NCBI GenBank assembly: GCA_020429915.1
Contig: JAGQKV010000031.1
Coordinates: 2,656-66,655, forward strand
Origin: Candidatus Omnitrophota bacterium
Lineage (GTDB): Bacteria > Omnitrophota > Gorgyraeia > Zapsychrales > Zapsychraceae
Length of the DNA: 64,000 bases
Reading direction: 5' to 3'
The notes under the pieces are model-generated. The model saw nothing but the letters and a program-made list of their open reading frames with translations. It did no database searches and was not told the origin of the DNA. Made by a program: the position numbers and the translations under genes. Position 1 is the stretch's first letter. Every line of letters starts with the position of its first letter. Shown one piece after another: positions 29,170 through 64,000 of the stretch.

Positions 29170-29176
29170 CGCCTTC

Positions 29177-39980: not shown

Positions 39981-40011
39981 ATTTCACATCGAAATCTCTA
40001 TAATAAGTCGT

Positions 40012-41577
40012 ATGCTCAACCCGCCCGTGCCTGATATCTCGATTATAATCCCCGCCAAAGATGAGGAGCGGCGTCTGCCGACATTCTTGCTGGATGTGAT
40101 CAGTTTCTGTCAGGCATCTGCACAGCAATACGAAATAATTGTGGTCGATGACGGCAGCCGTGACGGAACATCGGCTGTGGTGGAAAAGTTTCAAGCCAAG
40201 TTTGCCCGCCTGCATCTGATCGTCTTGAAAAAAAACAGAGGGAAAGGGTATGCCGTCAAACAGGGCGTCCTGCGGGCCCGCGGGAATATCGTCCTGTTTA
40301 TGGATGCAGACGGGTCCACGCCGCCGAGCATGATCGAAGAGTATACACCGCTGTTGTCGGGGGGGAACGATATCGTGATCGGTTCGCGGGTGGTCGCCGA
40401 TGAGAAGCATCGCGTGCAGGCGCGCGGTTACCGTAAACTTGTCGGGCAGGTGTTTAATTATTTTGTCCACCGGTTCTTGATGCCCGATATCATGGACACG
40501 CAGTGCGGGTTCAAAATGTTTCGCCGTGAGGTGGTCCGGCCGCTGTTCGGACGCCTGAATATCAAAGGCTTCGGGTTTGATTTGGAACTGCTTTATTTGG
40601 CCCGGCTGTTGGGCTACCGCGTGGCCGAGGTTCCGGTGGATTGGCGGCATGTGGACGCGTCCAAAACAAATTTGATCAGCGATTCCTGGCGGATGTTGAT
40701 GAATATCTTTCAAATCCGCAACTGGCATGCCTACAGCGGGGCCGTCATGGCACGGCACATGAGCACCGCGGAGATCGACGCCATGCATAGCGCCGAGGAG
40801 GATCACTGGTGGTTTCAGGCGAAGCGGAATCTGGTGCGGCAGTTGGTCGGGCCGCTTGGCGGAACCCGGCCGCGGTTACTGGATGCCGGATGCGGCACCG
40901 GACTGAACCTCCGGCAGTGGGATGCCTCCGCGGAATGTTTCGGCTGCGATGCCATGTTTCCTGCTCTGCAACACACGCGGGGCGCGGGGGGCGGCTGTCT
41001 GGCTCAGTGCGATCTGGAACGATTGTGCTATCGGGACGGGACTTTTGATGTTATCACCGCGCTCGACGTGATTGAGCATGTTCCGGATCCGGAACGGGTG
41101 GTGGGGGAAATCAGTCGGGTCCTGAAGGCCGGCGGGCGAGTGATTATTACGGTGCCGGCATTCAAATTCCTATGGAGCCCGCATGACGAGGCCTTGAGTC
41201 ACTTCCGCCGGTACCATCGCCGTGAGCTACGCGGATTACTTGAAGACGCGGGATTGCCGGTCGTTCGGATGGGATACCATTACTGTGCGGTTTTCTTACT
41301 CGTCGCACCGTTGAGAGTTTTCAAGCGTCTTTTTAGCGGACAGGAGCGCCCCCGTTCCGATACAGCCGTGCCGCCGCCACCGTGGGTGAACCGCCTTTTG
41401 GCCAGATGGCAAGGCTGGGAACTCGCCTTATCGCGTTATCTGTCCTTACCATTCGGGACGACGCTTTACGCTATCGTGGAAGGGCGTCCGTCTGTATCCA
41501 ATATCAGCTATCGGTTCCAGCGGCCGGAGGAGTCCGCTGTCTCGCCGGACGGCCTGCTTCAACCCACGGAATCATGA
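40012..41577 (+). CDS. bifunctional GT2 polyprenyl-phosphate glycosyltransferase (ArnC/DPM1-like) fused to a class I SAM-dependent methyltransferase
   Basis: The N-terminal GT-A has ISIIIPAKDEE...VVDDGSRDGT...MDADGS (DxD). The C-terminal half has LLDAGCGTGLN (SAM motif I) and ...VLKAGGRVIITVP. The 521-aa frame is continuous. Confidence 0.75.
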   Translation: MLNPPVPDISIIIPAKDEERRLPTFLLDVISFCQASAQQYEIIVVDDGSRDGTSAVVEKFQAKFARLHLIVLKKNRGKGYAVKQGVLRARGNIVLFMDADGSTPPSMIEEYTPLLSGGNDIVIGSRVVADEKHRVQARGYRKLVGQVFNYFVHRFLMPDIMDTQCGFKMFRREVVRPLFGRLNIKGFGFDLELLYLARLLGYRVAEVPVDWRHVDASKTNLISDSWRMLMNIFQIRNWHAYSGAVMARHMSTAEIDAMHSAEEDHWWFQAKRNLVRQLVGPLGGTRPRLLDAGCGTGLNLRQWDASAECFGCDAMFPALQHTRGAGGGCLAQCDLERLCYRDGTFDVITALDVIEHVPDPERVVGEISRVLKAGGRVIITVPAFKFLWSPHDEALSHFRRYHRRELRGLLEDAGLPVVRMGYHYCAVFLLVAPLRVFKRLFSGQERPRSDTAVPPPPWVNRLLARWQGWELALSRYLSLPFGTTLYAIVEGRPSVSNISYRFQRPEESAVSPDGLLQPTES

Positions 41578-48367: not shown

Positions 48368-49702
48368 GTGACCTTCCACTTTATGACCCTTCATTCACCG
48401 ACATTCCGTCGTTCCGGAAAGGCGTTTCTTTTGCTTATGACGGGATTGACTCTCACCTCTCTGTGCGGGCGCACCGTGGTGCCGGTCCGGGCTCAATCTC
48501 AGTTGGGAGGAACCGGGGCATCCGACGCGAAGAGTAGCGAAACCTATCAGGAGTATCTGGCATTCTTCCGGGAAGTTTTCGATATCATGCGGGAGAATTA
48601 TTACAAGGATATCGATGAGGAAGACTACGACCGGTTTTTGCAAACTTTTGACCAGAAGATATTCGCCCAGCTTAAGGGGGAGGGGAAGTCGAATGACTTT
48701 GTTCGCTGGCGCAGCGCCGCATTTCTGGTCGACTTTCTGAAAGAAGACGACGATATTTTTTCCGCTTTTTATCCGCCGAAACCGGCCAAGGAGTACGAAG
48801 AAACTGCGCTGGGTAAGCGTATCGACCTTGGCCTGGAGGGAGAGCTGCTGCCGGTCGGTTTCCGGCTGACTTTCGTTGAGCCGCGCTCGAATGCCTACCA
48901 GCTGGGAATGCGGGAAAACGACTTGCTAGTCATGATCGATCAGGCAGAAGTGAGCGGTCTCAGCGAGGAGGAAGTGCGTGATCGCTTGCGGCCACTGGAA
49001 GATACGGTCGTGTCGCTGGTGTATTTGGACGGTCAAACCCGGGAGTCCAGGGGAGTCGATGTGGTTTCCGAAGAGTACTTCAAACAGGCGGTGTTCGACG
49101 TTCCCATTCCTGTGCCGGGGATTTATTGCCTGAAAATTGAGCGGTTTAACCGAAAAACTTTTGAGGATGTCTTTCGGTTTCTCACTTTTTATCGTCAACA
49201 TGGGCCGATCAAGGGGTTGATTATCGATTTGCGTGGAAATCCCGGTGGTCCGCCGTTGGCGGCCCGTGAAATCTCATCATTTTTCCTGCCGGCAGGAGAG
49301 GAATTTGCCTATTTTCAGAGGAACAACAAACCGAAGGCCGAATTGGATGTCCCCGAACTGCCCCAGGAACATCATTACGACGGCCCGCTGGCGATCCTTA
49401 TCGACGAGGGCAGCGGCAGTGCCTCGGAGCTTTTTTCAGGAGTTATGCAACAGCGCCGGCGCGCCGTTTTGCTAGGTGAAAACTCCGCCGGGCAGGTGTT
49501 TCTCAAAAGTATGTTTCCGCTGGAAGATGAATCTATGCTATTATTAGTTACCGCACGCGGCCACTATCCTGACGGCCAAGTCTTCAGCTTTCAAGGTTTA
49601 ACTCCGGACCGGCACGTGGCCAGCATGAATCAGGATGACATCCTCAAGTACGCGGCGACATACATTCTCTACGTGAACCAGAAAGACAACGCATCCCTAT
49701 GA
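48368..49702 (+). CDS. S41 family peptidase (C-terminal processing / tail-specific protease-like)
   Basis: It has a signal peptide and a PDZ-like middle. The catalytic region is IDLRGNPGGPPLAAREISSFF (Ser), with ...DEGSGSASE.... Confidence 0.72.
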   Translation: MTFHFMTLHSPTFRRSGKAFLLLMTGLTLTSLCGRTVVPVRAQSQLGGTGASDAKSSETYQEYLAFFREVFDIMRENYYKDIDEEDYDRFLQTFDQKIFAQLKGEGKSNDFVRWRSAAFLVDFLKEDDDIFSAFYPPKPAKEYEETALGKRIDLGLEGELLPVGFRLTFVEPRSNAYQLGMRENDLLVMIDQAEVSGLSEEEVRDRLRPLEDTVVSLVYLDGQTRESRGVDVVSEEYFKQAVFDVPIPVPGIYCLKIERFNRKTFEDVFRFLTFYRQHGPIKGLIIDLRGNPGGPPLAAREISSFFLPAGEEFAYFQRNNKPKAELDVPELPQEHHYDGPLAILIDEGSGSASELFSGVMQQRRRAVLLGENSAGQVFLKSMFPLEDESMLLLVTARGHYPDGQVFSFQGLTPDRHVASMNQDDILKYAATYILYVNQKDNASL

Positions 49703-50457
49703 AAAAGGCACCCGGCCTCAAGACGCTTCAGTCCGAAAAGGGCGCAGTAAATCAAGCGCGACTCCTGATCGTCGTGCCTGCCTATAATGAGGAAGGGAGT
49801 ATCCGCGCGGTGGTGTCCGATATCATTTTGTCTCCTTGGAATTTGGATGTGTTGGTTGTGAACGACGGATCGACGGACCAAACTTTTGAACAGGCGAGGG
49901 CCGCAGGAGTTAATGTGATTTCGCTACCGTTTAATCTGGGTATCGGCGGGGCGGTCCAAACCGGTTTTCAATTTGCCCTGCGTCAGGGTTACGATTTGGT
50001 GGTCCAAATGGACGGCGACGGCCAGCACGATGTCGATTTTCTCGGTACTCTGGTTAATCCCATATTGAACAATGAAGTGGATATGACGATAGGAAGCCGT
50101 TTTATCCCGCCGTATCTCGGCTATCAATCTTCGTTCGTGAGGAGGATCGGCATTAATTTCTTTGCCCGATTGTTAAGTGCTTTAACCGGATCCCCGGTGA
50201 CGGATCCGACCAGTGGATTCCGGGCCTATAACCGGAAAATGATCAATATTTTCGCCCGGTATTATCCGCACGATTTTCCGGAGCCGGAAGCTATCGTCGT
50301 GGCCGGGAGATACGGCGCGCGCATTCGTGAAGTCCCGGTGACCATGCGGGAGCGGCAAGCCGGTTCGAGTTCGATCCGTTATTTTAAAACGTTGTACTAC
50401 ATGCTCAAAGTGACACTCGCCATTTTACTGGGCCGGTTTAAGACCAAGAGGGGATAG
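49699..50457 (+). CDS. GT2 glycosyltransferase (polyprenyl-phosphate sugar synthase, GtrB/DPM1-like)
   Basis: The motifs LLIVVPAYNEEGSI...VVNDGSTDQT...QMDGDGQHD (DxD) are present. Confidence 0.75.
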   Translation: MKKAPGLKTLQSEKGAVNQARLLIVVPAYNEEGSIRAVVSDIILSPWNLDVLVVNDGSTDQTFEQARAAGVNVISLPFNLGIGGAVQTGFQFALRQGYDLVVQMDGDGQHDVDFLGTLVNPILNNEVDMTIGSRFIPPYLGYQSSFVRRIGINFFARLLSALTGSPVTDPTSGFRAYNRKMINIFARYYPHDFPEPEAIVVAGRYGARIREVPVTMRERQAGSSSIRYFKTLYYMLKVTLAILLGRFKTKRG

Positions 50458-50463
50458 CGCGAC

Positions 50464-50847
50464 ATGATCATCAAATTTATAACGGTGAGCGCAGGTTTGA
50501 TGATGGTTGTTTTTGTGCTCGAGTTGATCCGCAAAGAGCGTTTGACTTTTAAATACGCGTTTGCGTGGCTGGGTGTCGGTGCCTTGCTGGTTTTCTTTGC
50601 CGTTTTCGACGGGCTGTTGTATCAACTGGCATATGCTTTGGGATTTCAATTGCCCAGCAATTTTATATTCTTCAGTCTCTCCGGAGTTTTTGTGGTGTTG
50701 AGTTTCCTAATGACGGTTTTTTTGTGCCAGCAAAATGAGCGTAACGATTCCATGGCACAAAAAATCGGAATTCTTGAATTTGAGATCCGCCAACTGAAAG
50801 AAGAGCTTGAGCTAAAGGAAAGAGCGCATGAAAACCAAAAATCTTGA
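50464..50847 (+). CDS. DUF2304-like small membrane protein
   Basis: It has 3 TM helices and a C-terminal coiled coil (EFEIRQLKEELELKE). It lies downstream of a GtrB-like GT2, which is a recurrent pairing. Confidence 0.45.
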   Translation: MIIKFITVSAGLMMVVFVLELIRKERLTFKYAFAWLGVGALLVFFAVFDGLLYQLAYALGFQLPSNFIFFSLSGVFVVLSFLMTVFLCQQNERNDSMAQKIGILEFEIRQLKEELELKERAHENQKS

Positions 50848-51499
50848 ATTGCCCGGGGCTCAGGATTGGAACCATTACTGGGAACGGGGGCAAACCCAGC
50901 GCTTCACCCGTGTCAGCTGGTCCAAGCGGAGGATCATTCGGATGCTGCAGCCGTACTTGAAGACCGGGTGCCATGCGCTCGATGCCGGTTGCGGAAGCGG
51001 ATTCTTTTCACAATTCTTTTGCGAAAGCGGAATGCGCGCCACAGCCCTCGACTACTCGCGGTCTGCTCTTGAAATTGCCGGGTCCAAGACCCGGGGCCGT
51101 GCCAAACTGGTCCAGGCGAATTTGGTGGAAGATGACCTGTCTGTTAAGTTAACGGACCGTTATCACCTCGTTTTTACCGACGGACTTTTGGAGCACTTTG
51201 TTCCCGCCGACCAGGACCGTATTATCCGCAATTTAATGAGTATCCTCGTCGACGATGGCGTGATTGTCACCTTCGTTCCCAACCGCTGGTCGCCGTGGGA
51301 GCTCATCCGACCGCTTTATATGCCGGGCATAAAAGAAGACCCCTTCCGTTTGGGGGAGCTGGTCGACCTGCATGAGCGGAATCATCTTAAGGTCCTCGCC
51401 CGCGGCGGGGTCAATACGGTTCCTTTTGCTTTTTCCCCCGACGGACTCTTCGGTTCGGTTTTCGGGATGTTATTGTTTACCATTGCCAAATTACGATGA
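50828..51499 (+). CDS. class I SAM-dependent methyltransferase
   Basis: Motif I (ALDAGCGSGFFS) is present, as is motif post-I (…ALDYSRSALE). Confidence 0.7.
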   Translation: MKTKNLELPGAQDWNHYWERGQTQRFTRVSWSKRRIIRMLQPYLKTGCHALDAGCGSGFFSQFFCESGMRATALDYSRSALEIAGSKTRGRAKLVQANLVEDDLSVKLTDRYHLVFTDGLLEHFVPADQDRIIRNLMSILVDDGVIVTFVPNRWSPWELIRPLYMPGIKEDPFRLGELVDLHERNHLKVLARGGVNTVPFAFSPDGLFGSVFGMLLFTIAKLR

Positions 51500-52479
51500 C
51501 ACAACCATCCGTTGCGGTCGTCATTCCCGCTTTTAACGCTGAGCAGACCTTGCCTTTCTGTTTGCAGGCGGTAACATCTCAGAACATCCCCCCTCAGGAA
51601 ATTATCGTTGTGGACGACGGATCCTCAGACCGGACTTCGGCCGTGGCCGGTTCTTTTCCCGAAGTGCGCTGTGTGCGACAGGATAATGCCGGGCCGGCAG
51701 CCGCCCGCAACCGCGGTCAGCGCGAGACCGGGGCGGATATCGTTTTGTTCACGGATTCTGATTGTGTTCCGGCTCCCGATTGGGTGGCTGCGGCAGCGGC
51801 CGGGTTTGTGAGGGAAGATATCGGGGCTGTGGCCGGAAGCTACGATATCATCAATCCCGGGTCGCGGCTGGCTCGCTGCATTCACGCGGAGATTTTGTAC
51901 CGGCATCTGCGCTTGCTGCCGGAATATCCCCGGGCTTTCGGGAGTTTTAACGTGGCCATTCGGCGGGATGTCTATGTCGGGGTGGGTGGTTTTGACGAGT
52001 CGTATCCGGCGGCCTCCGGAGAGGATAATGACCTGAGCTACCGGATCCGGCGGGCCGGGTATAAGATCCGCTTCGATCCCCGTTCGCGGGTCGGCCATCA
52101 CCACCCGGAACGGGTCGTGCGTTATCTGCGGGAGCAGTTCCGGCACGGTTTCTGGCGGGTTAAAATGTACCGCGCACATCCGCATATGGCCGGGGGGGAC
52201 GATTATACTTTCTGGAAGGATATTGCGGAGGTGGGGTTGGCGGGATTGACAGGATTGGCGTTGCTGATTTTACCGTTCGGTCTGCCGGCTGTGTGCGTGG
52301 TCGTCTTGGGTGGAGCCCTCATGCTGCTGCAAGCAGGTTTCTGTTTCCGGATCTGTCCTAACATGTTTGACGGAATTTTTTACTCGCTGGTATTGTTTTT
52401 GCGTGCATTCGCGCGTGCCATAGGTTTCTCGTCGGGGATGTTGTCGTCATTCGGCCGCCGAAAAACAAAAAAAAGCTAA
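51496..52479 (+). CDS. GT2 glycosyltransferase with C-terminal membrane helices
   Basis: It has VVIPAFNAEQTL...VVDDGSSDRT...FTDSDCV (DxD) and two C-terminal TM segments. Confidence 0.72.
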   Translation: MTQPSVAVVIPAFNAEQTLPFCLQAVTSQNIPPQEIIVVDDGSSDRTSAVAGSFPEVRCVRQDNAGPAAARNRGQRETGADIVLFTDSDCVPAPDWVAAAAAGFVREDIGAVAGSYDIINPGSRLARCIHAEILYRHLRLLPEYPRAFGSFNVAIRRDVYVGVGGFDESYPAASGEDNDLSYRIRRAGYKIRFDPRSRVGHHHPERVVRYLREQFRHGFWRVKMYRAHPHMAGGDDYTFWKDIAEVGLAGLTGLALLILPFGLPAVCVVVLGGALMLLQAGFCFRICPNMFDGIFYSLVLFLRAFARAIGFSSGMLSSFGRRKTKKS

Positions 52480-52995: not shown

Positions 52996-53616
52996 ATGAT
53001 TTTGAAGAAGAAAGAAACTGCTGAGCAAAAGCTCCTTAAAATGATCGAGGCGTCTTCCGGAGATGCCGGCGCGGCGTCCCGTGCACAACGCAAAACGTCT
53101 CGCCAGCAAGATGCTTTGTCTCTGCTGAAGACGTTCAACAGTCTGTTGCTGATTTTGATTGTCGGGGTGGCCGTCCTTGTCGGTCTCGAGATCAAAAAGG
53201 GCATGGACATCATGGGAGCGGGCATAGATATCCAGGCGGAACGGGGGATGACAGACTCGATGGACGGTGACAAAGTGCATACGGTCCAAAAATTACCGTT
53301 TTATCTGGCCGGTGTAAACCGTCGCAACATTTTCCGGCCCTATGACGAACAGATCTTTGCCGACGTCAGCCCTGTTCAGGAGCTAATGACCATTACCCGC
53401 AAGACCGAAAATCTTCGTTTGGTAGGGATTTCCTGGATGGATCGCGTCGAAAGCGCCTCGGCGATGATTGAAGATACCGAAAAGCAGGTCACCTACTTCC
53501 TGCAAAAAGGTGAAAAAATCGGCAATATCGAAGTCAAGACTATCTACGCCGACAGCGTGGAACTTGCTCTTGAAAACGAGGAGATGATACTGAGATATGA
53601 CAAACCACAACTGTAA
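52996..53616 (+). CDS. bitopic membrane protein upstream of secretin (possible PilP/GspC-like accessory)
   Basis: The 206-aa product has a cytoplasmic N-terminus, one TM (LLLILIVGVAVLVGL) and a periplasmic domain. It overlaps the secretin start by 20 nt. The AT-rich upstream has TATAAGATTATAACTATATG. Confidence 0.35.
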   Translation: MILKKKETAEQKLLKMIEASSGDAGAASRAQRKTSRQQDALSLLKTFNSLLLILIVGVAVLVGLEIKKGMDIMGAGIDIQAERGMTDSMDGDKVHTVQKLPFYLAGVNRRNIFRPYDEQIFADVSPVQELMTITRKTENLRLVGISWMDRVESASAMIEDTEKQVTYFLQKGEKIGNIEVKTIYADSVELALENEEMILRYDKPQL

Positions 53617-55198
53617 AAAGACTGTACGACGGCGAGCATTTCTCCCGCTCTTGGGCGCCCTCGCGTTGGTTGCCGGTAATTCCACGTTCGCGGCGGCGCA
53701 GGCCCCGCGTCCGATCCAGGTAAAAAACTACGAAGAAGAGATACTTAAACGTATGCAGCGGACGATCACCCTGGATGTCCGGGATATGAACATCGTCGAC
53801 GTCATCAAGTTCCTGGCCCTGAAAGGGGATTTCAATGTGGTCATTTCCCCAACCGTCGAGGGAAGATCGACAGTCTTGTTGAACAGCGTGACCATTAAGG
53901 ATGCGCTTGATATCGTTATTATTTCCAATAACTTAGCGTATAAGATTCAGGGTGAGATTGTTCAGATCATGACTTCTGCCGAGTATGAATCGATGTTCGG
54001 TAAACGTTTTGGCGATCAGACGGTCGTGGCCATTGAGCGCCTGAATTATGCCAAGCCCAGTTACGCTCTGGCCGCGCTGGACAGCATTAAGAGCAACGTT
54101 GGGCGCATTATTATAGATGAAGACACCGGGTCGGTGGTTATGATCGACACCCCCGAATCCATCGCTAAAATGCGTCAGGCCATCCAGGAGATCGAAAAGC
54201 CTTTGGAAACATATATTTACACGCTCCAGTATGCCAGCGCGGACGTGGTGGCCAATAAGTTGCGCGCGCGCATTGATGCCAAGGCTGTCGGTTCGATCAC
54301 GCCCGATGAACGCTCGAACAAGCTCATCGTCCGGGCTTTTCCCGAACGCCGCCGCGAAATCGAAATGATCGTGAAGAAGCTCGACTCTCCCACAAAGGAG
54401 GTGCTAGTCGACGCACGTATTCTCCAAGTCGTTCTCAATCCGGAGTATGACGTGGGCATTGATTGGAACAAGGATTTTCGCAAGAGCGGTGACGATGAAT
54501 TGCGAAAGCTCCAATTTAACAACATTTATCTCAATGCCGACAATTTGTCCAATAGTGACAACCTGGCCAATACATTCGGTCAGGTTGCCTTCGGGGATAT
54601 CAATGTTGATTCATTTGAGCTGACTTTGCGCGCCTTGCGCCAAGTCAGCGAAACCAAGATCTTGTCCAATCCCAAAATCCTGGTGACCAATAATGAAGAA
54701 GCCAAGATTCACATCGGCGATACGGTTCCGTACATCATATCCACCACTTCGGGAACAGGAGACAATGCGATTACAAGCGAAGATGTCCGGTTTATTGATG
54801 TCGGTCTCAAACTCAACGTGACGCCGATCATCAATGACGAAGGCTTTGTGACCATGCGCCTGCGTCCGGAGATCTCCACTATTGTCGGTGTCGTCGAGTC
54901 ACAGGGCGGCGGCATCCCGCAGGTGAATAAGACCGAAGTGGAAACGACGGTCATGGTGCACGACGGGCACAGTATTGTCTTGGGCGGACTTAAAAAAGAT
55001 GACCGGGTCCACTCCAAGAAGGGCTTTCCGGCACTAATGGATGTTCCGGTCATGGGGGCTCTCTTTGGCCGGACATCCGATGAGTATGCTCAAACCGAGA
55101 TCGTTATATTTCTGACACCGCACGTTGTTAAAGGCCACGAAGATTACGCGCAGATGAATGGCAACATCAAACCTTTTAAATCGTATAGTAACGAATAA
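53597..55198 (+). CDS. outer-membrane secretin (T2SS GspD / T4P PilQ family)
   Basis: It has a signal peptide and an N0-like domain (NIVDVIKFLALKGDFNVVISPTVEGRSTVLLNSVTIKDALDIVIISNNLAY). The C-terminal secretin domain carries ...KILSNPKILVTNNEEAKIHIGDTVPY... and ...SIVLGGLKKD....IVIFLTPHVV. Confidence 0.8.
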   Translation: MTNHNCKKTVRRRAFLPLLGALALVAGNSTFAAAQAPRPIQVKNYEEEILKRMQRTITLDVRDMNIVDVIKFLALKGDFNVVISPTVEGRSTVLLNSVTIKDALDIVIISNNLAYKIQGEIVQIMTSAEYESMFGKRFGDQTVVAIERLNYAKPSYALAALDSIKSNVGRIIIDEDTGSVVMIDTPESIAKMRQAIQEIEKPLETYIYTLQYASADVVANKLRARIDAKAVGSITPDERSNKLIVRAFPERRREIEMIVKKLDSPTKEVLVDARILQVVLNPEYDVGIDWNKDFRKSGDDELRKLQFNNIYLNADNLSNSDNLANTFGQVAFGDINVDSFELTLRALRQVSETKILSNPKILVTNNEEAKIHIGDTVPYIISTTSGTGDNAITSEDVRFIDVGLKLNVTPIINDEGFVTMRLRPEISTIVGVVESQGGGIPQVNKTEVETTVMVHDGHSIVLGGLKKDDRVHSKKGFPALMDVPVMGALFGRTSDEYAQTEIVIFLTPHVVKGHEDYAQMNGNIKPFKSYSNE

Positions 55199-55206
55199 CA
55201 AACTTT

Positions 55207-55734
55207 ATGACAAAGGGCTTACATATGCGCCAAAGAGGACTTGAGATGAAAAGCAGCCACCATCCGACGATAATTGTGTGTCTTATGTGCAGCCTCATAC
55301 TCGGCTTGGTTGGAACCGCCGGAGCGCAACTCGAAGGCAAAGAGATTCGCAACCGCGAACACCAGACGCTCGATCTTTTGTCCAATATCGATACCTACAA
55401 TATCAACGATGAACGTCTGCGCATGGATGCGGCGAAGGCGCACTACAATATGGGCAACATATACTTTCAGAAGGGGTACTACGAGATCGCCGCGCGCGAG
55501 TACTATCAGGCGGTTACCCTGATGCCCAACGACCCCGACACGCATTTCAATCTCGCTTTTGTCAGTAGTGAGTATCTAAGGGATTTCAAGACGGCGCTAA
55601 AGCACTACAAAATGTACCTTTATCTGAACCCGGACGCTAAGGATCGCGCCTTCGTGAACGAAAAGATTATGCACGCCCAGTTGGAAATCCGGGGAACTCT
55701 GGACTCCATTCTGGAAAAAGATATCAATAAGTAA
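55207..55734 (+). CDS. TPR-repeat protein with signal peptide (pilotin/PilF-like?)
   Basis: It has an N-terminal hydrophobic segment and then TPRs (AHYNMGNIYFQKGYYEIAAREYYQAVTLMPNDPDTHFNLAFV...). It lies immediately downstream of the secretin. Confidence 0.55.
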   Translation: MTKGLHMRQRGLEMKSSHHPTIIVCLMCSLILGLVGTAGAQLEGKEIRNREHQTLDLLSNIDTYNINDERLRMDAAKAHYNMGNIYFQKGYYEIAAREYYQAVTLMPNDPDTHFNLAFVSSEYLRDFKTALKHYKMYLYLNPDAKDRAFVNEKIMHAQLEIRGTLDSILEKDINK

Positions 55735-55895: not shown

Positions 55896-57512
55896 GTGGT
55901 ATCATTCGGTAGGTCCTACAGTCACATGCGAAATTTATTTTTAGTCAATCTTCAGATCCCCTCAATATTATTTATATTATTGTTTTGCGGATCCGACGCC
56001 CTCGCCAGCAATCTCTCCGTGTCCAATGTCGCCATCGCCTCCCGTAATCCGTCAACCAAAAAGCTGACCGCCACGTTCGATCTTACCTGGGAAAACGCCT
56101 GGAAAACCAAAATCAACCACGATGCTGTATGGGTCACGCTCCGTCTGCATAAGGCAGGAGCCAATCCCGTGGCCAAGAAATTGTGCCCGTTGTCGGCCTC
56201 TGGTCTGAACCCCGCGGGTACGGGAACCGGCACATCCCCCAATATCGAAGTTTATGTTCCCGCGGACAAAGCCGGGGCGTTCTTCCGTTTATCCGACTAC
56301 GGCATCCGGCCTGACGTCGTTTCCCAGGGCGTACAACTGGAGATCGATTACGAAGCCTGCGGATTCGCGGCGGATGACTCGGTCTATCTAAGTGTCTTGG
56401 GGCTTGAGATGGTCTACATCCCGAAGGGTGCTTTCTATGCCGGTGACTATGGGACAAGTACGGCGGTTTTGACCGAAGGCAGCGCGGATACCGATCCGTG
56501 GCACCTTACATCAGCCGGGCCTTTGTCCGTTTCCAACCCGACCATGGACGGCTACCGGTATTCCGCCGTCGGCCACGCGGGCGAGGATGCCTCCGGCAGC
56601 GCCTTCTCGGTACCGGCCGCATTTCCCAATGGTTATAAGGCGTTTTACGTGATGAAATATGAGTTGACTGAGGGACAGTGGGTTGAATTTCTGAATTCAC
56701 TGCCATCCGCGGCGGCGCGTGCTCATCATGATTTGACCGATAATAATCACAAAAACAGCGACGCGGTACGTGCCAGAAACACTGTCAGTTGTTCCGGGTC
56801 TCCGGTAACCTGCTCGACACAACGGCCCTACCGGGCGGCAGGTTATTTGTCGTGGATGGATCTGGCGGCTTTTCTGGACTGGGCGGCCCTGCGCCCCATG
56901 ACTGAACTGGAATATGAAAAGGCCTCCCGCGGACCGGTCGTTCCGGAAGAGGGCGAATTTCCCTGGGGAGACCAAACGATAACCGCCGCAAACACCGTGA
57001 CGACAGGCGACGAAGGCGGGGCCGAACGCGTCCTGACAACGGGCGCTAACGCCCACTTCGGTAGCGCCGTAATCAGCGGCGGTGATTCCGTGTACGGTGC
57101 TGAATACGCATACGGCCCCTTGCGCCAGGGGATTTTCGCCGGTTCCGAATCCACCCGTGTTAGCGCGGGCGCCTCCTATTACGGTGTCATGGAGCTTTCC
57201 GGAAATGTATGGGAACGGACCGTGACCATCGGCAATGCCAGCGGTCGTAATTTTGCCGGTACACACGGTGACGGGATGCTTTCCACGGCAAGCGGTTTCG
57301 AGGGATACGCGAATCAATCCGATTGGCCGGGAATTAATCCTACGCCGGCCCGCGGAGTGGACGGCGCCGACGGATCGGGGTACCGGGGCGGAAGTTTTGC
57401 CGCGTCCCAGGGGACGCTGCGCGTATCCGACCGTTCCAGGGCCGCGGAGACCAACACCGCCGCATCTTCCGACAGCGGCGGCAGAGGAGTAAGGACTGAT
57501 GATGCCAATTGA
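55896..57512 (+). CDS. secreted FGE-sulfatase (SUMF1/GldJ/GldK-type) domain protein, paralog A
   Basis: It has a signal peptide. Strong FGE-family motifs are present: YVMKYELTEGQWVEFLN, ...GYLSWMDLAAFLDWAALRPMTELEYEKASRG (WxDAxAYxxW...PTEAEWE pattern), GNVWER and YRGGSF. A novel ~170-aa N-terminal domain precedes them. Confidence 0.7.
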   Translation: MVSFGRSYSHMRNLFLVNLQIPSILFILLFCGSDALASNLSVSNVAIASRNPSTKKLTATFDLTWENAWKTKINHDAVWVTLRLHKAGANPVAKKLCPLSASGLNPAGTGTGTSPNIEVYVPADKAGAFFRLSDYGIRPDVVSQGVQLEIDYEACGFAADDSVYLSVLGLEMVYIPKGAFYAGDYGTSTAVLTEGSADTDPWHLTSAGPLSVSNPTMDGYRYSAVGHAGEDASGSAFSVPAAFPNGYKAFYVMKYELTEGQWVEFLNSLPSAAARAHHDLTDNNHKNSDAVRARNTVSCSGSPVTCSTQRPYRAAGYLSWMDLAAFLDWAALRPMTELEYEKASRGPVVPEEGEFPWGDQTITAANTVTTGDEGGAERVLTTGANAHFGSAVISGGDSVYGAEYAYGPLRQGIFAGSESTRVSAGASYYGVMELSGNVWERTVTIGNASGRNFAGTHGDGMLSTASGFEGYANQSDWPGINPTPARGVDGADGSGYRGGSFAASQGTLRVSDRSRAAETNTAASSDSGGRGVRTDDAN

Positions 57513-59151
57513 TATGAGACCTGCCTTGCGATTCGTTCTGGGAACAATGACATCTTTAGCCCTCATTTTTCCGGGAACCGCGCTGGCCAATCACCTGCAA
57601 ATCGATAACTATGAGGTGACGGCGATCGACGAGGCCAGCAACATGATGACCTTTACCGGAGATTTCATGTGGGAAAACAGCTGGCGGAATGTCAACAGCA
57701 ACGACGCGGTCTGGGTCTTCGTCAAATATTCCCTCGACGGCGGAGCGACCTGGAACCACGCCAGCATGACATCCAGCGGACTCAATCCCATCGGCTTCGC
57801 CGCTCCGGCGGGCTTCCAGATCGTGGTTCCCAATGACGAGCGCGGATTTTTTCTGGAACCGACGAGCTTCAGCAGCGGTGATGTAAATGTCCAGGGGGTC
57901 AGATTTTCCTGGGATTATGCCCAGGACGGTCTTAGCGATGAACAGGCTATGGCGGCCAATACGATCACCAAGGTTTTCGGTATCGAAATGGTCAAGATTC
58001 CCGAAGGCGCCTTTTACGCGGGCGACGGAAACAGTTCCTCAGCGCATCGCTTTAAGCAAGGTTTGGGTGACAACGATCCGTGGTATATCGAAAGTTCCGC
58101 GGCAATCAATGTCGCCAACGCAGGTAGTGACGGATATTACTACCAAAGCGCCGGAGCCAGCGGAGAGAGTGCCACCGGATCCTCATTCCTGATACCCACG
58201 TCATTTCCCAAGGGTTACAGCGCTTATTATGTGATGAAGTATGAGTTGACTGAAGGGCAATGGGTCAGCTTTTTTAATACTTTAAGTTACGCGCAAAAGA
58301 TGAACCGCGATATTACGGCCGCCAGCCGTGGCGGCAAAAATGCCGATACGATCGTTAACCGCAACACGGTGAGTTGGGATTCCGGCAATCCGCGGGCACA
58401 GGCTAGTACGTCCCGGCCAGACCGCCCGGTGACCTACATCTCGTGGCCGGATTTACTGGCCTACGCCGACTGGGCGGGATTGCGGCCCGTTACCGAACTT
58501 GAGTACGAAAAAGCGGCGCGCGGCGTCGATGTCTTGCCAACAGCTGATGAATACGCCTGGGGCAAGTCGACGTACAACGACGCTCAGGCCGGTGAAATCT
58601 ATCCGAACGCCGACGAGACCGGTCAGGAGCAGATTTTCGACGGTGCGGCCAATCTTAACCGTAACGCGCTCAGCTGGTCATCGGGAGACGGACGGCCCGG
58701 CGGCCCGGCGGACGGACAGAAGGGGCCGCTGCGGGTCGGTATTTTTGCCGAGGACTCCACCAACCGGGTGACGAGCGGCGCCGGATTCTACGGCACCATG
58801 GAGTTGTCCGGCAACCTGGCCGAAATGGTGGTATCGGTCGGCCGTACGGAAGGGCGCAATTTTTTGGGTTCGCATGGCGACGGTATTCTCTCCAGCGCCA
58901 CCGGATATGCCGGTAACGCGACCAACATTGACTGGCCGGGGATTGATCCGGTCGATCCGAACCGCGGCGTGACGTCCACGGTCGGTTCGGGGACCCGCGG
59001 CGGGGACTTTCAATCCGCGGATGTCAGACTGTTCCAGATTTCCACCCGGACTAACGCTACGCGCGACCCGGATAGTGAGGGGTACTACCAGCGTTTCGAT
59101 CCGGCGTTCGGGGTATTCCAGGGGGGCCGTCTGGCTCGCACGGCTCCTTAG
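57499..59151 (+). CDS. secreted FGE-sulfatase-domain protein, paralog B (tandem duplicate of A)
   Basis: It is collinear with A, sharing the YVMKYELTEGQWVSFFN, ...YISWPDLLAYADWAGLRPVTELEYEKAARG, MELSGN and TRGGDF motifs and the same N-terminal domain (…WENSW…NHDAVWV…). It overlaps A by 14 nt. Confidence 0.7.
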   Translation: MMPIDMRPALRFVLGTMTSLALIFPGTALANHLQIDNYEVTAIDEASNMMTFTGDFMWENSWRNVNSNDAVWVFVKYSLDGGATWNHASMTSSGLNPIGFAAPAGFQIVVPNDERGFFLEPTSFSSGDVNVQGVRFSWDYAQDGLSDEQAMAANTITKVFGIEMVKIPEGAFYAGDGNSSSAHRFKQGLGDNDPWYIESSAAINVANAGSDGYYYQSAGASGESATGSSFLIPTSFPKGYSAYYVMKYELTEGQWVSFFNTLSYAQKMNRDITAASRGGKNADTIVNRNTVSWDSGNPRAQASTSRPDRPVTYISWPDLLAYADWAGLRPVTELEYEKAARGVDVLPTADEYAWGKSTYNDAQAGEIYPNADETGQEQIFDGAANLNRNALSWSSGDGRPGGPADGQKGPLRVGIFAEDSTNRVTSGAGFYGTMELSGNLAEMVVSVGRTEGRNFLGSHGDGILSSATGYAGNATNIDWPGIDPVDPNRGVTSTVGSGTRGGDFQSADVRLFQISTRTNATRDPDSEGYYQRFDPAFGVFQGGRLARTAP

Positions 59152-59263: not shown

Positions 59264-62200
59264 ATGAGAAAATCCACAAAATCAGGCTGGTATCTCCATT
59301 TGCACAGGGCCGTGACGTGTGTCGTCGCGGTTCTGTTTATATTTGCGCAAATTCCGACGGTATCGTATGCGCAATTTACAGGTGGTCCCTTTAGCGGGGA
59401 CGAAGAATCATCCCTTGGTGATGATATCTATACGGGCGGGCCCAATTCGGGCCTTTCGAGTGGCACTTCCCCCAGCGCCGAGTCTTTGTCACACGGCGCT
59501 CCCACCAAACTGGTCTTCACACAATACCCTTCCGCAACAAAGCACAGCGTGGAATTTCGCCGCCAACCGATAATCGAAATCCGCGATGCCAATGACAACC
59601 TTGTCACAACCGACAACTCCACTCAAGTTACGTTGGATATCTTTAACAACCCCGGGGCCGGTGAGTTGCGTGGGACCACGACGCTTACCGCATCCGGTGG
59701 AAAGGTCGAGTTTACCGGCTTGTCCGTTACCACCGCGGGGGAGATGTATTCACTCATTGCCACGGCTCCCGGCCTGACATCGGCCATCTCGGATCCCTTT
59801 GATATCTTTCCGGGTACCGGTGTCAGGCTGGCAGCCGTATGGGATGATTCGGCAAATTCAGGAGACGGGGCCTTCACGATTTATGCATGGATTGAGTCCG
59901 ATGGTAACCGTATGCCTTTGGATGACGGGACCAATGCTATCTGTCGCGCGGCTACGTTGTACAACTCTTCCGGTGCAGGCGAACCAGGGGCTGGTGGAGA
60001 AACACCCGGTGGACGGTTGACGTTCGGGGAAAACCTCGCCCACGATGACACGCTACCGAACAATGCCAGAGACTGGTGTCAATCCGAAGAGTGGACGCCT
60101 TCCGACTTTCTCGATTCGTACTACATCAATGTTTCCGTACGGGACGAAGTGCCTACAGACTATTCCACATACGTAGCCCTACCGACCATTAAACCTTCAT
60201 TATCTGACATAGCTGAGAATTTTAACTGGGACCGCATCGAGGCCATTTTCGATGCGACCGACGACATCAATTGGGAAGACATCAGCGCCATCAAGGCCTC
60301 TACCGATACCATCAATTGGACGGATATCGAGACCCTGCGTTCCGACGTTACCTCTATAAAGGGTGTCACCGATTCGATGACGGCGGCCGGAATCAACTGG
60401 GATGATGTGGGAGTCATGAGTTCGGCCGATATCAATTGGGACGATATCATGCGCTTGACGGTGGCCGGTATCAACTGGACCGACTTCGATGTCTTGAGCG
60501 ACGCGGGCATCAACTGGGCGGATATTGCCGTCCTCAGTCTGGAGGGGATTAACTGGTCCGATCTTGAAGTGATGAGCGAGGCCGGCGTGAACTGGGAAAG
60601 TCTGAACGAACTGACCACCGCCGGCGTCAACTGGTTTGACATCGCCGTGATGAGCGGGGCCGGTGTCAATTGGGCGGATATCGACATCCTGAGTGACGCC
60701 AACATCAACTGGGCCGATCTGCAGTATATGTCCACGGCCTCCGTGAACTGGGATGACATTGCCAAGATGAGCGGGGTCGGGATCAATTGGGACGAGCACA
60801 TCAACTGGGATTCGCTCGCGCAATTAACCAACGCCGGCGTCAACTGGGATGACCTTGTCGAACTTTCCGAGGCCGGGGTGAATTGGGACGACATCGGAGT
60901 GATGTCCACGGCCGGCGTCAACTGGGCCGACATCGACGTGCTCAGCGACGCGGGAATCAATTGGGACGATATCGGCGCTCTGTCATTGGCAGGCATCAAC
61001 TGGGCCGATATCGATGTGTTGAGTGATGCCGGCGTGAACTGGTCCGATCTGACGGTCCTGACCATGGCCGGTATCAACTGGGCGGACATTGACGTATTAA
61101 GTGCGGCGGGGATCAATTGGGCCGACCTGGCCGCCATGTCGACCAGCGCCGTAAACTGGGATGATTTCCGGGTCCTGTCCGAGGCCGGTGTGAATTGGAG
61201 CGATCTGAACGCGTTGTCCACCGCCGGGATCAATTGGACCGACATCGGCGTTATGTCCGATGCGGGGATCAATTGGGCCAATATTCAGGCATTGAGCACG
61301 GCGGGCATCAACTGGGACGACATCAATGTCCTTAGCGACGCCGGCATCAACTGGAGCGATATCGGCGCGTTATCCGTTGCCGGAATTAATTGGCAGGATA
61401 TTGATGTCCTCAGCGACGCGGGTGTTAACTGGAATGATCTGCAGGCATTATCGACAGCGGGGATCAACTGGACGGACATCGATGTGATGAGCGAGGCCGG
61501 CGTCAACTGGTCGGGAATCCAGGCCCTCTCCGTTTCCGGTATCAACTGGACGGACATCGACGTGCTCAGCGAGGCGGGTATCAACTGGAGCGACATCGGC
61601 GCGTTGTCCACCGCCGGCGTGAACTGGCTCGATATCGATGTGCTCAGTGATGCGGGTGTGAACTGGTCCGATCTGCAGGCGTTATCGACAGCAGGCATTA
61701 ACTGGGATGACCTCAACGTACTGTCCGGGACCAACATTAACTGGAGTAATATTGCCGAGCTCTCCGCCGCCGGCGTGAACTGGACGGATATCGACGTGCT
61801 CAGCGGGGCAGGGGTGAATTGGGCGGATATTCAGCAATTATCGACGGCGGGCATCAATTGGTCGGATATTGACGTGCTCAGCGGGGCCGGAGTGAACTGG
61901 TCCGGCATTCAGGACTTGTCGACAGCCGGCATCAACTGGACCGATCTGGATGTTCTCAGCGAAGCGGGGGTCAACTGGTCGGGAATCCAGGCGCTCTCCG
62001 TTTCAGGGATCAACTGGACAGACATCGACGTGCTTAGCGACGCCGGTATCAACTGGGACGATCTGCAGGCGCTCAGTGTGGCAGGCATCAATTGGGCGGA
62101 CATCGACGTCATGTCCGACGCCGGAATCAACTGGGCGGATATCAATGTCCTGAGCGACGCCGGAGTGAACTGGTCGGGAATCCAGGACTTGTCCGTGGCC

Positions 62201-64000
62201 GGCATCAACTGGGATGACATCGATGTGCTCAGCGACGCCGGAGTCAACTGGAACGGTATTCAAGCCTTATCGACCGCGGGTATCAATTGGTCGGATGTCG
62301 ATGTGCTCAGCAGCGCCGGCATCAACTGGTCCGATCTGCAGGCTCTGACGACTACCGGTATCAACTGGTCCGATGTCGATATCCTCAGCGACGCGGGCAT
62401 CAATTGGTCAGATATCGAAGCCTTCTCTAAGGCAGGTATCAACTGGGCGGATATCGATGTCCTGAGCGATGCCGGTATCAACTGGTCCGACATCCAGGCC
62501 ATGACGGTTGCGGGTATCAACTGGTTCGACATCGATGTCCTCAGTGACGCCGGTATCAACTGGGCGGATCTGTCGGCGATGTCGACGTCTTCAATCAATT
62601 GGGATGACATTAATGTCCTGACCTCGGCGGGTGTGAACTGGACCGATCTCTCGGTGTTATCCAAGGCCGGTATCAACTGGGATGATTTCTCCGTTATGTT
62701 CGCGGCCAGTATCAATTGGGATGATATCAGCTCGTTGACCCGCTCCGGTGTCAACTGGTCGGATATTGATGTCATGAGTGACGCGGGTATCAATTGGGCG
62801 AATATCGGCGAGCTGTCTTTGGCCGGTGTCAACTGGGACGACCTGCAGTCGTTGTCGGATGCCGGAATTAATTGGACCGATATCAACGCCTTAAGCACCG
62901 CGGGTATCAATTGGACGGACATTGATGTCCTCAGCGACGCGGGCGTTAACTGGGCGGATATTGCCGTATTGTCCGCGGCGGGCGTGAATTGGGAAGACAT
63001 CGACGTACTCAGCGACGCCGGCATCAATTGGGCGGACCTGGAGGCATTGACGACCGCCGGAATCAACTGGACCGATATCGATGTGCTCAGTACAACGGGT
63101 ATCAACTGGTCGGGTATTCAGGCTTTGTCGGTGGCGGGCATCAACTGGACGGATATCGACGTCTTGAGCGAAGCGGGCATCAACTGGGCGGACATCGGCA
63201 GTTTGTCGGTGGCGGGCATCAACTGGGCAGATATTTATGTGCTGAGTGATGCCGGAGTGAATTGGGCGGATATCACCGTGATGTCGGCAACCGGGATCAA
63301 TTGGGATGATATCCAGGTCCTGTCGGATGCCGGAGTGAATTGGGCGGATATCAATGCCCTGTCGACCAGCGGAATCAACTGGACGGATATCGATGTTCTC
63401 AGTGAAGCAGGCGTGAATTGGGCGGATATCGCGGCGCTGTCGCTGAGCGGTATCAACTGGAATGATCTCGACGTGCTGAGTGATGCCGGAATCAATTGGT
63501 CCGGTATCCAGGCTTTGTCCGTCGCCGGAATCAACTGGGACGACATCGATGTGCTGAGCGATGCAGGCATCAACTGGGATGATGTCAACGCGATGAGCGT
63601 GGCCGGGATCAACTGGGATGACATCGGTGTTTTGAGTGAGGCGGGAGTCAATTGGTCGGATATCGCGGCGCTTAGCGTGGCCGGCATCAATTGGGATGAT
63701 ATCGACGCGCTCAGTACCGCCGGCATCAACTGGGCGGACATTGGCAGCATGTCCACGGCCGGGATCAACTGGACGGATATCGATGTGCTCAGCGGGGCCG
63801 GAATTAACTGGACCGATATTCAGGCCTTGTCCGTCGCGGGCATTAACTGGTCGGATATCGACGTACTCAGTGACGCCAACATCAACTGGCTCGGCATTCA
63901 GTCGCTGTCGGTCGCGGGTATCAACTGGACGGATATCGACGTGCTCAGTGACGCGGGTATCAACTGGGCGGACATTCAAGCCTTGTCGGTGGCCGGAGTA
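59264..64000 (+). CDS. giant secreted tandem-repeat protein (at least 1578 aa, 3' end beyond the window): signal peptide, ~320-aa N-terminal region, then ~95 copies of a 13-aa repeat INWxDIxxLSxAG
   Basis: It starts at ATG 59264 (MRKSTKSGWYLHLHRAVTCVVAVLFIFAQIPTVSYAQ). I hand-translated frame 2 continuously to the window end and found no stop. The only track ORFs over 60.2-64.0 kb are the minus-strand ones rejected below, which fits an incomplete + ORF running off the end, assuming the track omits ORFs that lack an in-window stop. From about 60.22 kb the protein is a 39-nt periodic array. Confidence 0.75.
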   Translation, partial: MRKSTKSGWYLHLHRAVTCVVAVLFIFAQIPTVSYAQFTGGPFSGDEESSLGDDIYTGGPNSGLSSGTSPSAESLSHGAPTKLVFTQYPSATKHSVEFRRQPIIEIRDANDNLVTTDNSTQVTLDIFNNPGAGELRGTTTLTASGGKVEFTGLSVTTAGEMYSLIATAPGLTSAISDPFDIFPGTGVRLAAVWDDSANSGDGAFTIYAWIESDGNRMPLDDGTNAICRAATLYNSSGAGEPGAGGETPGGRLTFGENLAHDDTLPNNARDWCQSEEWTPSDFLDSYYINVSVRDEVPTDYSTYVALPTIKPSLSDIAENFNWDRIEAIFDATDDINWEDISAIKASTDTINWTDIETLRSDVTSIKGVTDSMTAAGINWDDVGVMSSADINWDDIMRLTVAGINWTDFDVLSDAGINWADIAVLSLEGINWSDLEVMSEAGVNWESLNELTTAGVNWFDIAVMSGAGVNWADIDILSDANINWADLQYMSTASVNWDDIAKMSGVGINWDEHINWDSLAQLTNAGVNWDDLVELSEAGVNWDDIGVMSTAGVNWADIDVLSDAGINWDDIGALSLAGINWADIDVLSDAGVNWSDLTVLTMAGINWADIDVLSAAGINWADLAAMSTSAVNWDDFRVLSEAGVNWSDLNALSTAGINWTDIGVMSDAGINWANIQALSTAGINWDDINVLSDAGINWSDIGALSVAGINWQDIDVLSDAGVNWNDLQALSTAGINWTDIDVMSEAGVNWSGIQALSVSGINWTDIDVLSEAGINWSDIGALSTAGVNWLDIDVLSDAGVNWSDLQALSTAGINWDDLNVLSGTNINWSNIAELSAAGVNWTDIDVLSGAGVNWADIQQLSTAGINWSDIDVLSGAGVNWSGIQDLSTAGINWTDLDVLSEAGVNWSGIQALSVSGINWTDIDVLSDAGINWDDLQALSVAGINWADIDVMSDAGINWADINVLSDAGVNWSGIQDLSVAGINWDDIDVLSDAGVNWNGIQALSTAGINWSDVDVLSSAGINWSDLQALTTTGINWSDVDILSDAGINWSDIEAFSKAGINWADIDVLSDAGINWSDIQAMTVAGINWFDIDVLSDAGINWADLSAMSTSSINWDDINVLTSAGVNWTDLSVLSKAGINWDDFSVMFAASINWDDISSLTRSGVNWSDIDVMSDAGINWANIGELSLAGVNWDDLQSLSDAGINWTDINALSTAGINWTDIDVLSDAGVNWADIAVLSAAGVNWEDIDVLSDAGINWADLEALTTAGINWTDIDVLSTTGINWSGIQALSVAGINWTDIDVLSEAGINWADIGSLSVAGINWADIYVLSDAGVNWADITVMSATGINWDDIQVLSDAGVNWADINALSTSGINWTDIDVLSEAGVNWADIAALSLSGINWNDLDVLSDAGINWSGIQALSVAGINWDDIDVLSDAGINWDDVNAMSVAGINWDDIGVLSEAGVNWSDIAALSVAGINWDDIDALSTAGINWADIGSMSTAGINWTDIDVLSGAGINWTDIQALSVAGINWSDIDVLSDANINWLGIQSLSVAGINWTDIDVLSDAGINWADIQALSVAGV
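60220..64000 (+). repeat. tandem array of 39-nt (13-codon) in-frame repeats, with alternating A/B subtypes giving a 78-nt super-period; about 95 units within the window
   Basis: Near-identical units such as atcaactggacggatatcgacgtgctcagcgacgcgggt recur throughout. Consensus A is (G)INW(T/A/S)DIDVLSDAG and consensus B is (G)(I/V)NWSDLQALS(T/V)AG. Confidence 0.9.

Follow-up and report, generated by a model that had tools for sequence, protein, structure and literature searches.

A 64,000-nt stretch of a Candidatus Omnitrophota genome [GenBank: GCA_020429915.1, contig JAGQKV010000031.1, positions 2,656 to 66,655], referred to below as the window, carries at its 3′ end the first part of a giant gene that encodes tandem copies of a 13-residue repeat with an invariant Asn-Trp pair. 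The gene starts at position 59264 on the plus strand and runs beyond the window. Proteins encoded in its neighbourhood match, identically or nearly so, those of metagenome-assembled genomes named Candidatus Omnitrophota. The repeat family is rare and previously undescribed, its units have been kept by selection on the protein, and its members share one architecture and one gene neighbourhood. We propose, giving the proposal an even chance, that the gene encodes a length-variable exported fibrillar stalk or adhesin; the secretin machinery encoded next to it would handle the protein, whose C terminus would serve for docking.

The Omnitrophota, ultra-small bacteria that occur widely and are for the most part uncultured, are thought to prey on other cells or to live attached to them, and we know of no account of the mechanism by which they make contact with those cells. 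A conserved pilus/ATPase locus and, separately, giant genes of obscure function have already been published for the phylum, and giant repetitive surface proteins, the general kind considered here, are known from it. What is new is that an undescribed repeat protein is now placed inside the published pilus/ATPase 'symbiosis' locus. Its layout of head, stalk and conserved end, with a ~25-fold range of length, makes it a testable candidate for the contact structure. The 13-mer is also a new repeat family for domain databases and, with its invariant Asn-Trp at a 13-residue period, an unusual target for structural biology.

The repeat gene and its integrity

The initial annotation, made from the DNA letters and a list of open reading frames (orfs), had described an uninterrupted plus-strand array with 39-nt periodicity, some 95 or more copies and an invariant Trp, and the analysis bears this out. 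Translation of positions 59264-64000 gives 1579 codons with no stop, a dipeptide count finds 96 'NW' units, and 91 of the 95 spacings between them are exactly 13 residues. The unit consensus is G-[IV]-N-W-x-D-[IL]-x-x-[LM]-S-x-A. The first unit starts at aa 319 (nt 60218), in agreement with the non-repetitive N-terminal region of ~320 aa assigned before, and all irregular spacings (15, 15 and 27 residues, plus a 6-residue half unit at aa 506-511) are confined to the array start. The remaining 82 units, which start at aa 512 (nt 60797) and reach the window end, show no register slip at all. Asn3 and Trp4 are present in 82/82 of them, and five further positions in 84-93%: Gly1 (76/82), Ser11 (74/82), Ala13 (71/82), Asp6 (70/82) and Leu10 (69/82).

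With Tandem Repeats Finder the array shows periods of 39 and 78 nt at a nucleotide match of just 60-70%. Nucleotide identity between units is 65-67% at even lags and 59-61% at odd lags, so that the 13/26 periodicity and the two flavours of unit recognized earlier (A-type, ..DIDVLSDA; B-type, ..[IL]QALS[TV]A) are real; their alternation is not strict, being interrupted by a few phase slips. In the source organism the array contains 14.6% D+E and 0.4% K+R, with an isoelectric point (pI) of 4.05 and neither Cys nor Pro.

The ATG of the gene is preceded at 5 nt by AGG. The signal peptide claimed before was found again by eye as a Sec-like N terminus (basic n-region, hydrophobic core and SYA/QF cleavage site). 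AlphaFold2 (AF2) places a helix at aa 8-28 of this region, and in the family alignment the position of the signal peptide is kept in 13 members and followed by a conserved [YF][TS]GG motif. The N-terminal 379 aa have no Pfam match. Foldseek aligns the predicted immunoglobulin (Ig)-like domain with Ig-like modules of multidomain GH2/BbgIII glycosidases over ~120 residues at a root-mean-square deviation of ~3 Å, and sequence matches spanning ~7% of the query, in a region of it that is not mapped, carry invasin-D3/Big-type Pfam domains. The second β-rich domain has the conserved pattern Y-I-x-S-W-L-E ... W-T-P ... S-Y in the family alignment.

The array sequence recurs identically on three contigs of the European Nucleotide Archive (ENA; L001, L002 and L003), and where two ENA assemblies from different samples both cover the gene (8257 nt) they do not differ. 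Inter-unit mismatch at codon positions 1, 2 and 3 is 0.33, 0.24 and 0.55, respectively, residues shared between units use the same codon in 43% of cases versus 40% expected from codon usage alone, and exact nucleotide repeats of 30 nt or more are absent from the array. The low codon sharing, the third-position variation and the lack of exact repeats indicate that the units are old and kept by selection on the protein, and that the array does not come from assembly collapse or recent slippage. One might suspect a pseudogene in decay or an artefact of assembly from the two 100-N gaps within the array on a public scaffold, the many contigs that end there, the frameshift that cuts one orthologue (P0001) and an ENA scaffold annotation that holds only spurious minus-strand orfs. 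Such an origin is extremely improbable and essentially excluded by the identity of the two assemblies, by the absence of stops from the 2752, 1166 and 565 codons read on three scaffold pieces, by the codon-position signature and diverged synonymous sites, which point to a working gene, by an orthologue called uninterrupted at 8087 aa on a 1.34-Mb contig, and by an architecture kept across species.

As had been supposed, the protein continues past the window. On a public scaffold of 128 kb the gene calls extend from record position 65022 to about 89610; the apparent frame shifts in this region occur only across the two gaps. At least 319 units are present, those visible reaching position 78680, and the last scaffold piece has been called as a 4203-aa product. 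We estimate that the gene spans at least ~24.6 kb, corresponding to ~8,200 codons and ~580 units, of which 4552 residues have been seen. The 4203-aa call, without its end, came to light when the look-up of a spurious minus-strand orf of the window lengthened the known scaffold by 3.8 kb; a homologue look-up of the downstream protein returned loci of other species and no 3′ end of this gene.

Long minus-strand stop-free orfs of up to 373 aa overlie the array (window 60160-63979) and are by-products of its periodicity. The ENA annotation of scaffold_21 (L001, 12125-21653) consists only of spurious minus-strand genes (44-592 aa) and misses the real plus-strand gene; the annotation of contig L002 did call a plus-strand product (2819 aa). 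In most public assemblies the contig starts or stops within the array (L014, L015, L016, L018-L022). Since the array breaks short-read assemblies and misleads gene callers, the family is probably hidden, and so are its true lengths.

Distribution and architecture of the repeat family

A 52-column repeat profile, compared with 1.84 billion cluster representatives, gave 417 matches at E≤0.001 (many of them fragments), 144 at E≤1e-10 and 40 at E≤1e-30. Other searches were less productive: a word-indexed homology search with the repeat profile returned just fragments of 29-87 aa, a scan of species-representative genomes with the downstream protein, for which the derived patterns were too narrow, gave 3 loci, and a metagenome scan with the C-terminal module gave 8 loci, all broken inside the array or limited by their flanks. 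Five of the six named long-array members or loci belong to Omnitrophota, and the sixth (L008) is labelled Planctomycetales. This 'uncultured Planctomycetales' metagenome-assembled genome (L008, 1-3749) has the array together with the C-terminal module and the downstream protein; either its label is wrong or the family extends outside Omnitrophota. Near-identical higher-order blocks in its array suggest a recent expansion there.

Thirteen members align over the whole N-terminal region (signal peptide, [YF][TS]GG, Ig-like domain, second β-rich domain and array lead-in, the motif of which is also found in orthologues) and further through the first dozen units to a conserved half unit. This half unit stands at the equivalent place in P0001, P0002, P0004, P0008, P0060, P0061 and P0065, and its retention across species indicates that the first array block is positionally orthologous. 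The head differs among members: P0002 has LamG, whereas P0001 has a region of 1300 aa. The latter orthologue (2304 aa; L006, 16900-18654) ends at a frameshift, after which 45 more units follow in another frame to the contig end; either the gene is longer than annotated or the sequence contains an error. The register is equally strict in other giants (247/247 spacings of 13 in L017). Complete genes encode 868, 900, 1292, 2809 and 8087 aa, and further loci, in which the contig starts inside the array or the array exceeds the flank, give lower bounds of 1748 to 3461 aa. Array copy number across orthologues at the same locus ranges from ~23 to ~600 units, i.e. ~25-fold.

The best-conserved part outside the repeat is a C-terminal module of 155-395 aa in full-length members, and it has been aligned across 9 members of the family. 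It comprises zero to several [IL]-G-x-x-T-D-T-S-x-x-x-T-[LIV]-F-G segments followed by helical sequence and ends with ...K-L-[DE]-E-I-x-A-K-x-x-A-L-K-E...V-V-V-K-x-W-[FY]-E, with at most a few residues beyond. Its profile matches the helical neck of DC-SIGNR [PDB: 3jqh] with a whole-sequence E of 1.2e-10 and a domain E of 7e-5, which suggests that the module may be a coiled-coil-like stalk or neck. The DC-SIGNR neck is a coiled-coil stalk of tandem 23-residue helical repeats and has G-x-[LS]-[PD] breaks in common with the module; the match is of repeat against repeat at low identity and suggests structural likeness rather than a shared ancestor. What it matches is the C-terminal module of the orthologues; the 13-mer array of the window has no part in it.

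The initial annotation did not recognize the 13-mer as a described repeat, and nothing in Pfam-A, NCBIfam or PDB covers it. No single stretch of the array passes in Pfam-A or NCBIfam, where the scores are sums of sub-threshold partial matches, and the 52-column profile has no match among PDB sequences. Ntox33 (PF15533) reached 91 bits summed with no passing stretch, DotG-IcmE (NF033900) 53 bits against a cut-off of 750, and ALTTAQ_rpt (PF20080) 60.6 bits summed, above its cut-off, yet no individual stretch passes; these matches, like those of Thiolase_C_1 and Dmc1, are repeat-accumulation artefacts of score summing and have been rejected. The ALTTAQ repeat resembles a short 'A-L-[ST]-T-A-[GQ]' stretch of the array, but the best array stretches match only 10-17 of its 38 profile positions; a 10-unit piece scores 26.6 against the cut-off of 26.4 and covers 10/38 positions. 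A calcium-binding unit of dockerin or EF-hand type was also rejected as a property of the family: no such profile appears at E≤1, and the other giants are not acidic. By eye the unit resembles only positions 8-12 of an EF-hand loop and its exiting helix. An RTX-type or other type I-secreted adhesin has been discarded, since there is no RTX-type Pfam match and an N-terminal signal-peptide-like sequence is present.

The anchors that the initial annotation proposed to look for were not found in the full-length orthologues, which end instead with VVVK-x-W-[FY]-E: neither Pfam (on P0004) nor NCBIfam (on P0004, P0002 and P0008) detects a type IX secretion system (T9SS) C-terminal domain, LPXTG, PEP-CTERM or a β-barrel or trimeric-autotransporter anchor. 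Looser 'GINW-x-x-[LI]' units with a spacing of 14-16 residues occur in tail-fibre-like proteins, one of them with a C-terminal tail-fibre PHROG match, and blocks of 7-9 units of 13 residues in surface proteins with GLUG/M26-N domains. No Pfam family covers these looser relatives (P0119, P0128, P0139, P0088 and P0094). The literature searched for the motif or for a 13-residue Trp repeat yielded nothing, and the repeat is absent from the searchable papers on Omnitrophota (West-Roberts et al. 2023; Seymour et al. 2023, PMC10066038; a 2026 complete-genome preprint).

The conserved locus and the proposed fibrillar stalk

The genes for a GspC-like protein, a secretin and a TPR protein lie 5′ of the repeat gene in 4/4 loci with enough flank, the upstream gene order of the window being repeated in three other Omnitrophota contigs (L004, L005 and L006). 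NCBIfam does not separate PilQ from GspD for the secretin: the two scores are about equal, and both lie under the equivalog cut-off. In every locus that extends downstream (L004, L005, L010, L012, L014 and the P0008 contig) the next gene, 2-132 nt after the repeat gene, encodes a conserved protein of 404-466 aa with a signal peptide and a C-terminal transmembrane helix (L004, 12610-13917; L005, 13888-15255). This bitopic protein has two β-rich segments with helical stretches between them, and distant members are 37% identical. Its family numbers at least 124 clusters of uniform length, 5/5 taxonomically named matches are to Omnitrophota, and no Pfam, NCBIfam or PDB relative was found. It is a plausible candidate for a docking partner of the repeat protein.

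Beyond it lie, in the same orientation, an F-type ATPase set and then genes for T2SSE, T2SSF and a pseudopilin. The ATPase gene order is unusual, namely α, ε-like, c-like, a 75-80-aa unknown, OSCP/δ-like, γ and β (L004, 13933-19336; L010, 10522-16106; L012, 11325-16746; none within the window), and no subunit a is visible in the clusters next to the repeat gene. The α and β subunits of L004 score above the NCBIfam cut-offs for ordinary atpA/atpD and below those for the Mycoplasma gliding subunits. Loci with an F-type ATPase and type 4a pilus genes have been reported in every Omnitrophota class and tied to host attachment and movement; the ATPases group with Mycoplasma type 2/3 enzymes, and surface motility has been suggested (Seymour et al. 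2023, PMC10066038). Published work classes such ATPase loci as non-respiratory, a label not confirmed in the present analysis.

In the proposed reading, Sec would export the protein, and the neighbouring secretin machinery would then give it passage or serve as its site of assembly. The array would be a slender stalk or rod, docked to machinery of the cell envelope by the conserved C-terminal module, and the variable Ig-like head would be held out at a distance set by the number of repeats, as in a fibrillar adhesin of an ultra-small, probably host-attached bacterium. The reading draws on the signal peptide, the variable head, the ~25-fold range of the stalk, the conserved end and the linkage to secretin, bitopic-protein and pilus genes. 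A tandem-repeat stalk of variable copy number (23 to ~600 units), as expected of fibrillar adhesins, is present; the Ig-like head is predicted by modelling, and its adhesive binding and surface anchoring are putative. The Sec signal together with the linkage to secretin, GspC, GspE, GspF and pseudopilin genes is what would be expected of a substrate or component of a system like type II secretion (T2SS) or type IV pili. Architecture and neighbourhood are thus consistent with the adhesin or fibre that was first suggested.

Known fibrillar adhesins with Ig-like or RTX repeats, such as LapA, are likewise exported giants with a terminal Ig-like domain, a copy-variable stalk and a conserved other end. 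Their stalks are built of folded β-domains of 80-110 residues, whereas the unit here is a 13-residue, probably α-helical peptide, and the repeat protein lacks RTX nonapeptides, a type I secretion signal and LPXTG, T9SS or autotransporter anchors. Their heads are adhesive; the head of the repeat protein is a putative binder only. The 'Archaeovorins' and 'Dockerin-type' giants of Omnitrophota have in common with it the phylum, a very long gene, T2/T4-like secretion genes nearby and a proposed role in cell attachment. Those giants carry many transmembrane segments, a SecA-like helicase, HEAT, TPR, or dockerin/thrombospondin-3 repeats (bioRxiv 10.1101/2023.11.21.568195). None of these domains occurs in the 4552 residues seen or in the full-length orthologues; unlike those giants, the repeat protein has, after its signal peptide, one homogeneous array of 13-mers.

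For the fold, the initial annotation had suggested a β-solenoid; two AF2 runs and the helix-capping pattern favour instead, with low confidence, one short α-helix per unit. The run on 20 units (41 in-register or shifted alignment rows) gave a predicted local distance difference test score (pLDDT) of 51, and that on aa 1-530 with 13 orthologues gave 40-57 in the array. In both, each unit consists of one 9-residue helix (W4 to position 12) and a 4-residue A-G-I-N turn, and neither run places a β-strand in the array (pLDDT 40-57). We infer that the consensus reads as a complete helix cap, in which I2 would be the pre-cap, Asn3 the N-cap and Asp6 part of a capping box, I2 and I7 would form a hydrophobic staple and Gly1 of the next unit would serve as C-terminal cap. 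On these models it is rather probable that the array is α-helical with a 26-residue two-helix super-repeat; each 13-mer would be one short capped helix, and the A/B alternation would produce an α-solenoid-like arrangement. If the models are right, the two-helix A/B super-repeat is shared with α-solenoids (TPR, PPR, TALE, HEAT), and the weak Foldseek matches are to TALE/BurrH; those proteins, however, have super-repeats of 33-47 residues versus 26 here and no sequence similarity to the array, the packing of which is not confidently predicted.

Several points weigh against the proposed stalk or its helical fold. AF2 confidence for the array is low (pLDDT 40-57, predicted template modelling score 0.26-0.34), with no tertiary packing. 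The hydrophobic period is 2.6 residues, with 5 apolar positions per 13, and is not diagnostic of an α-helix; nor does it clearly match the period of about 2 that an alternating in/out β pattern would have. Foldseek with the repeat model finds only designed helical repeats and TALE proteins at a template modelling (TM) score ≤0.36, and with such scores from a low-confidence model the fold matches of the array have been treated as uninformative. Expression, export and surface location are putative. The protein has no recognised anchor or sorting motif; the end by which it is attached, and lasting attachment itself, are a guess. A rod hundreds of nanometres long is an atypical substrate of type II secretion. 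The 3′ end of this gene is deduced from the orthologues and one gene call. Finally, the strong acidity (pI 4.05) is a trait of this lineage: two other giant members are charge-balanced (D+E 7%, K+R 6%), so charge cannot belong to a family-wide mechanism.

Asparagine ladders occur in β-solenoids, and the invariant Asn of each unit recalls them. A β-solenoid of ~26 residues per coil with an Asn/Trp ladder, or a multi-chain β-fibre like the shafts of phages and adenoviruses, would leave the fibre function unchanged, and hydrophobic positions recur every 2.6 and not every 3.6 residues. The lack of confident monomer packing in AF2 would fit a fold made of several chains, and the looser relatives in tail-fibre-like proteins point the same way. 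We nevertheless find such a fold distinctly unlikely, as both AF2 runs give helices and no strand in the array, the unit shows the full pattern of N-cap, capping box, staple and C-terminal Gly, it has one Gly and no Pro, and no relative of the array was found on viral contigs. As to the role, the protein might be a released T2SS-like substrate that forms a matrix, coat or sheath, with the C-terminal module as a secretion or recognition signal. The signal peptide, the adjoining GspC-like, secretin and GspE/F/G-like genes and the lack of a known anchor motif would all fit this, and an extracellular 'coat' has been proposed for other giant Omnitrophota proteins (PMC10066038). We consider it unlikely, because a variable head, a variable stalk and a conserved end are the usual layout of anchored fibrillar adhesins and because the protein could plausibly dock on the membrane protein encoded in tight linkage downstream, although neither point is decisive.

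In the gliding of Mycoplasma mobile, giant leg proteins are driven by F1-like ATPases. By analogy, the adjacent F-type ATPase could form a motor together with the bitopic membrane protein, and the repeat protein would be its mechanical output element, a 'leg' or tether, since the three sets of genes are co-oriented and 2-132 nt apart in every locus, the ATPase cluster shows no subunit a, and Seymour et al. group these ATPases with Mycoplasma type 2/3 enzymes. This is quite improbable: in L004 the α and β subunits pass the ordinary cut-offs and miss the gliding ones (a comparison of scores), adjacency of genes alone does not demonstrate mechanical coupling, and the ATPase genes of the source organism lie outside the window and were not seen. 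A bolder extension of the stalk proposal, to which we give little chance, is that the Asn-Trp unit would found a protein fold class of its own, with one capped helix per 13 residues and shorter than any helical solenoid repeat known so far, and that the rod (up to hundreds of nanometres), the bitopic protein, a non-canonical F-type ATPase and the pilus-like machinery would form a so far unrecognised surface organelle with which ultra-small Omnitrophota would reach, hold or move on host cells, its reach being set by repeat number.

Features of the window

The features of the repeat gene and its upstream neighbours are collected in Table 1.

Table 1 Coordinates of the repeat gene features and neighbouring genes in the window
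Feature	Position (nt)	Strand	Basis or remark
GT2, DUF2304, methyltransferase, GT2 block	49699..52479	+	5′ of secretin in every locus seen
GspC-like protein	52996-53616	+	Pfam, NCBIfam
PilQ/GspD-type secretin	53597-55198	+	Pfam, NCBIfam
TPR protein resembling pilotins, weak PilW/Tgl similarity	55207-55734	+	Pfam, NCBIfam
FGE-sulfatase (SUMF1/EgtB/PvdO) domain proteins, two genes	55896-57512, 57499-59151	+	Pfam
Start codon and predicted Sec signal peptide (aa 1-35, MRKSTKSGWYLHLHRAVTCVVAVLFIFAQIPTVSYA/QF)	59264..59368	+	translation
Gly/Ser-rich low-complexity linker (aa 36-79)	59369..59500	+	AF2 pLDDT 29-35, unstructured; length varies in family
Predicted Ig-like β-sandwich domain (aa ~80-185)	59501..59818	+	AF2 pLDDT 80-91, all β
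Second predicted β-rich domain (aa ~187-303)	59822..60172	+	AF2 strands, pLDDT 50-72; family-conserved
Array lead-in, three longer degenerate units (15, 15, 27 aa)	60218..60388	+	motif I-K-A-x-T-D-T-I-N-W-x-D-I
First regular 13-residue block, ending in 6-residue half unit (GINWDE/HINWDS)	60389..60796	+	
Main array, 82 units in 39-nt register, leaving window end	60797..64000	+	A-type and B-type mostly alternating

Farther upstream (window 38532-41577) lie genes for a PMT_2-type glycosyltransferase and a GT2-methyltransferase fusion, and at 27592-30247 two adjacent plus-strand orfs (525 and 356 aa) with no Pfam match at E≤1e-5. The two proteins with FGE-sulfatase domains each have ~240 aa of N-terminal sequence outside the assigned domain. 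L004 and the P0008 contig have these genes, L005 has three genes for small proteins in their place and L006 lacks them, and this patchy presence marks them as a variable accessory of the locus. An N-W-[ST] sequon occurs in ~44% of the repeat units, in which Ser11 is conserved; given these residues and the nearby GT2 and methyltransferase genes, glycosylation of the repeat fibre is a possibility.

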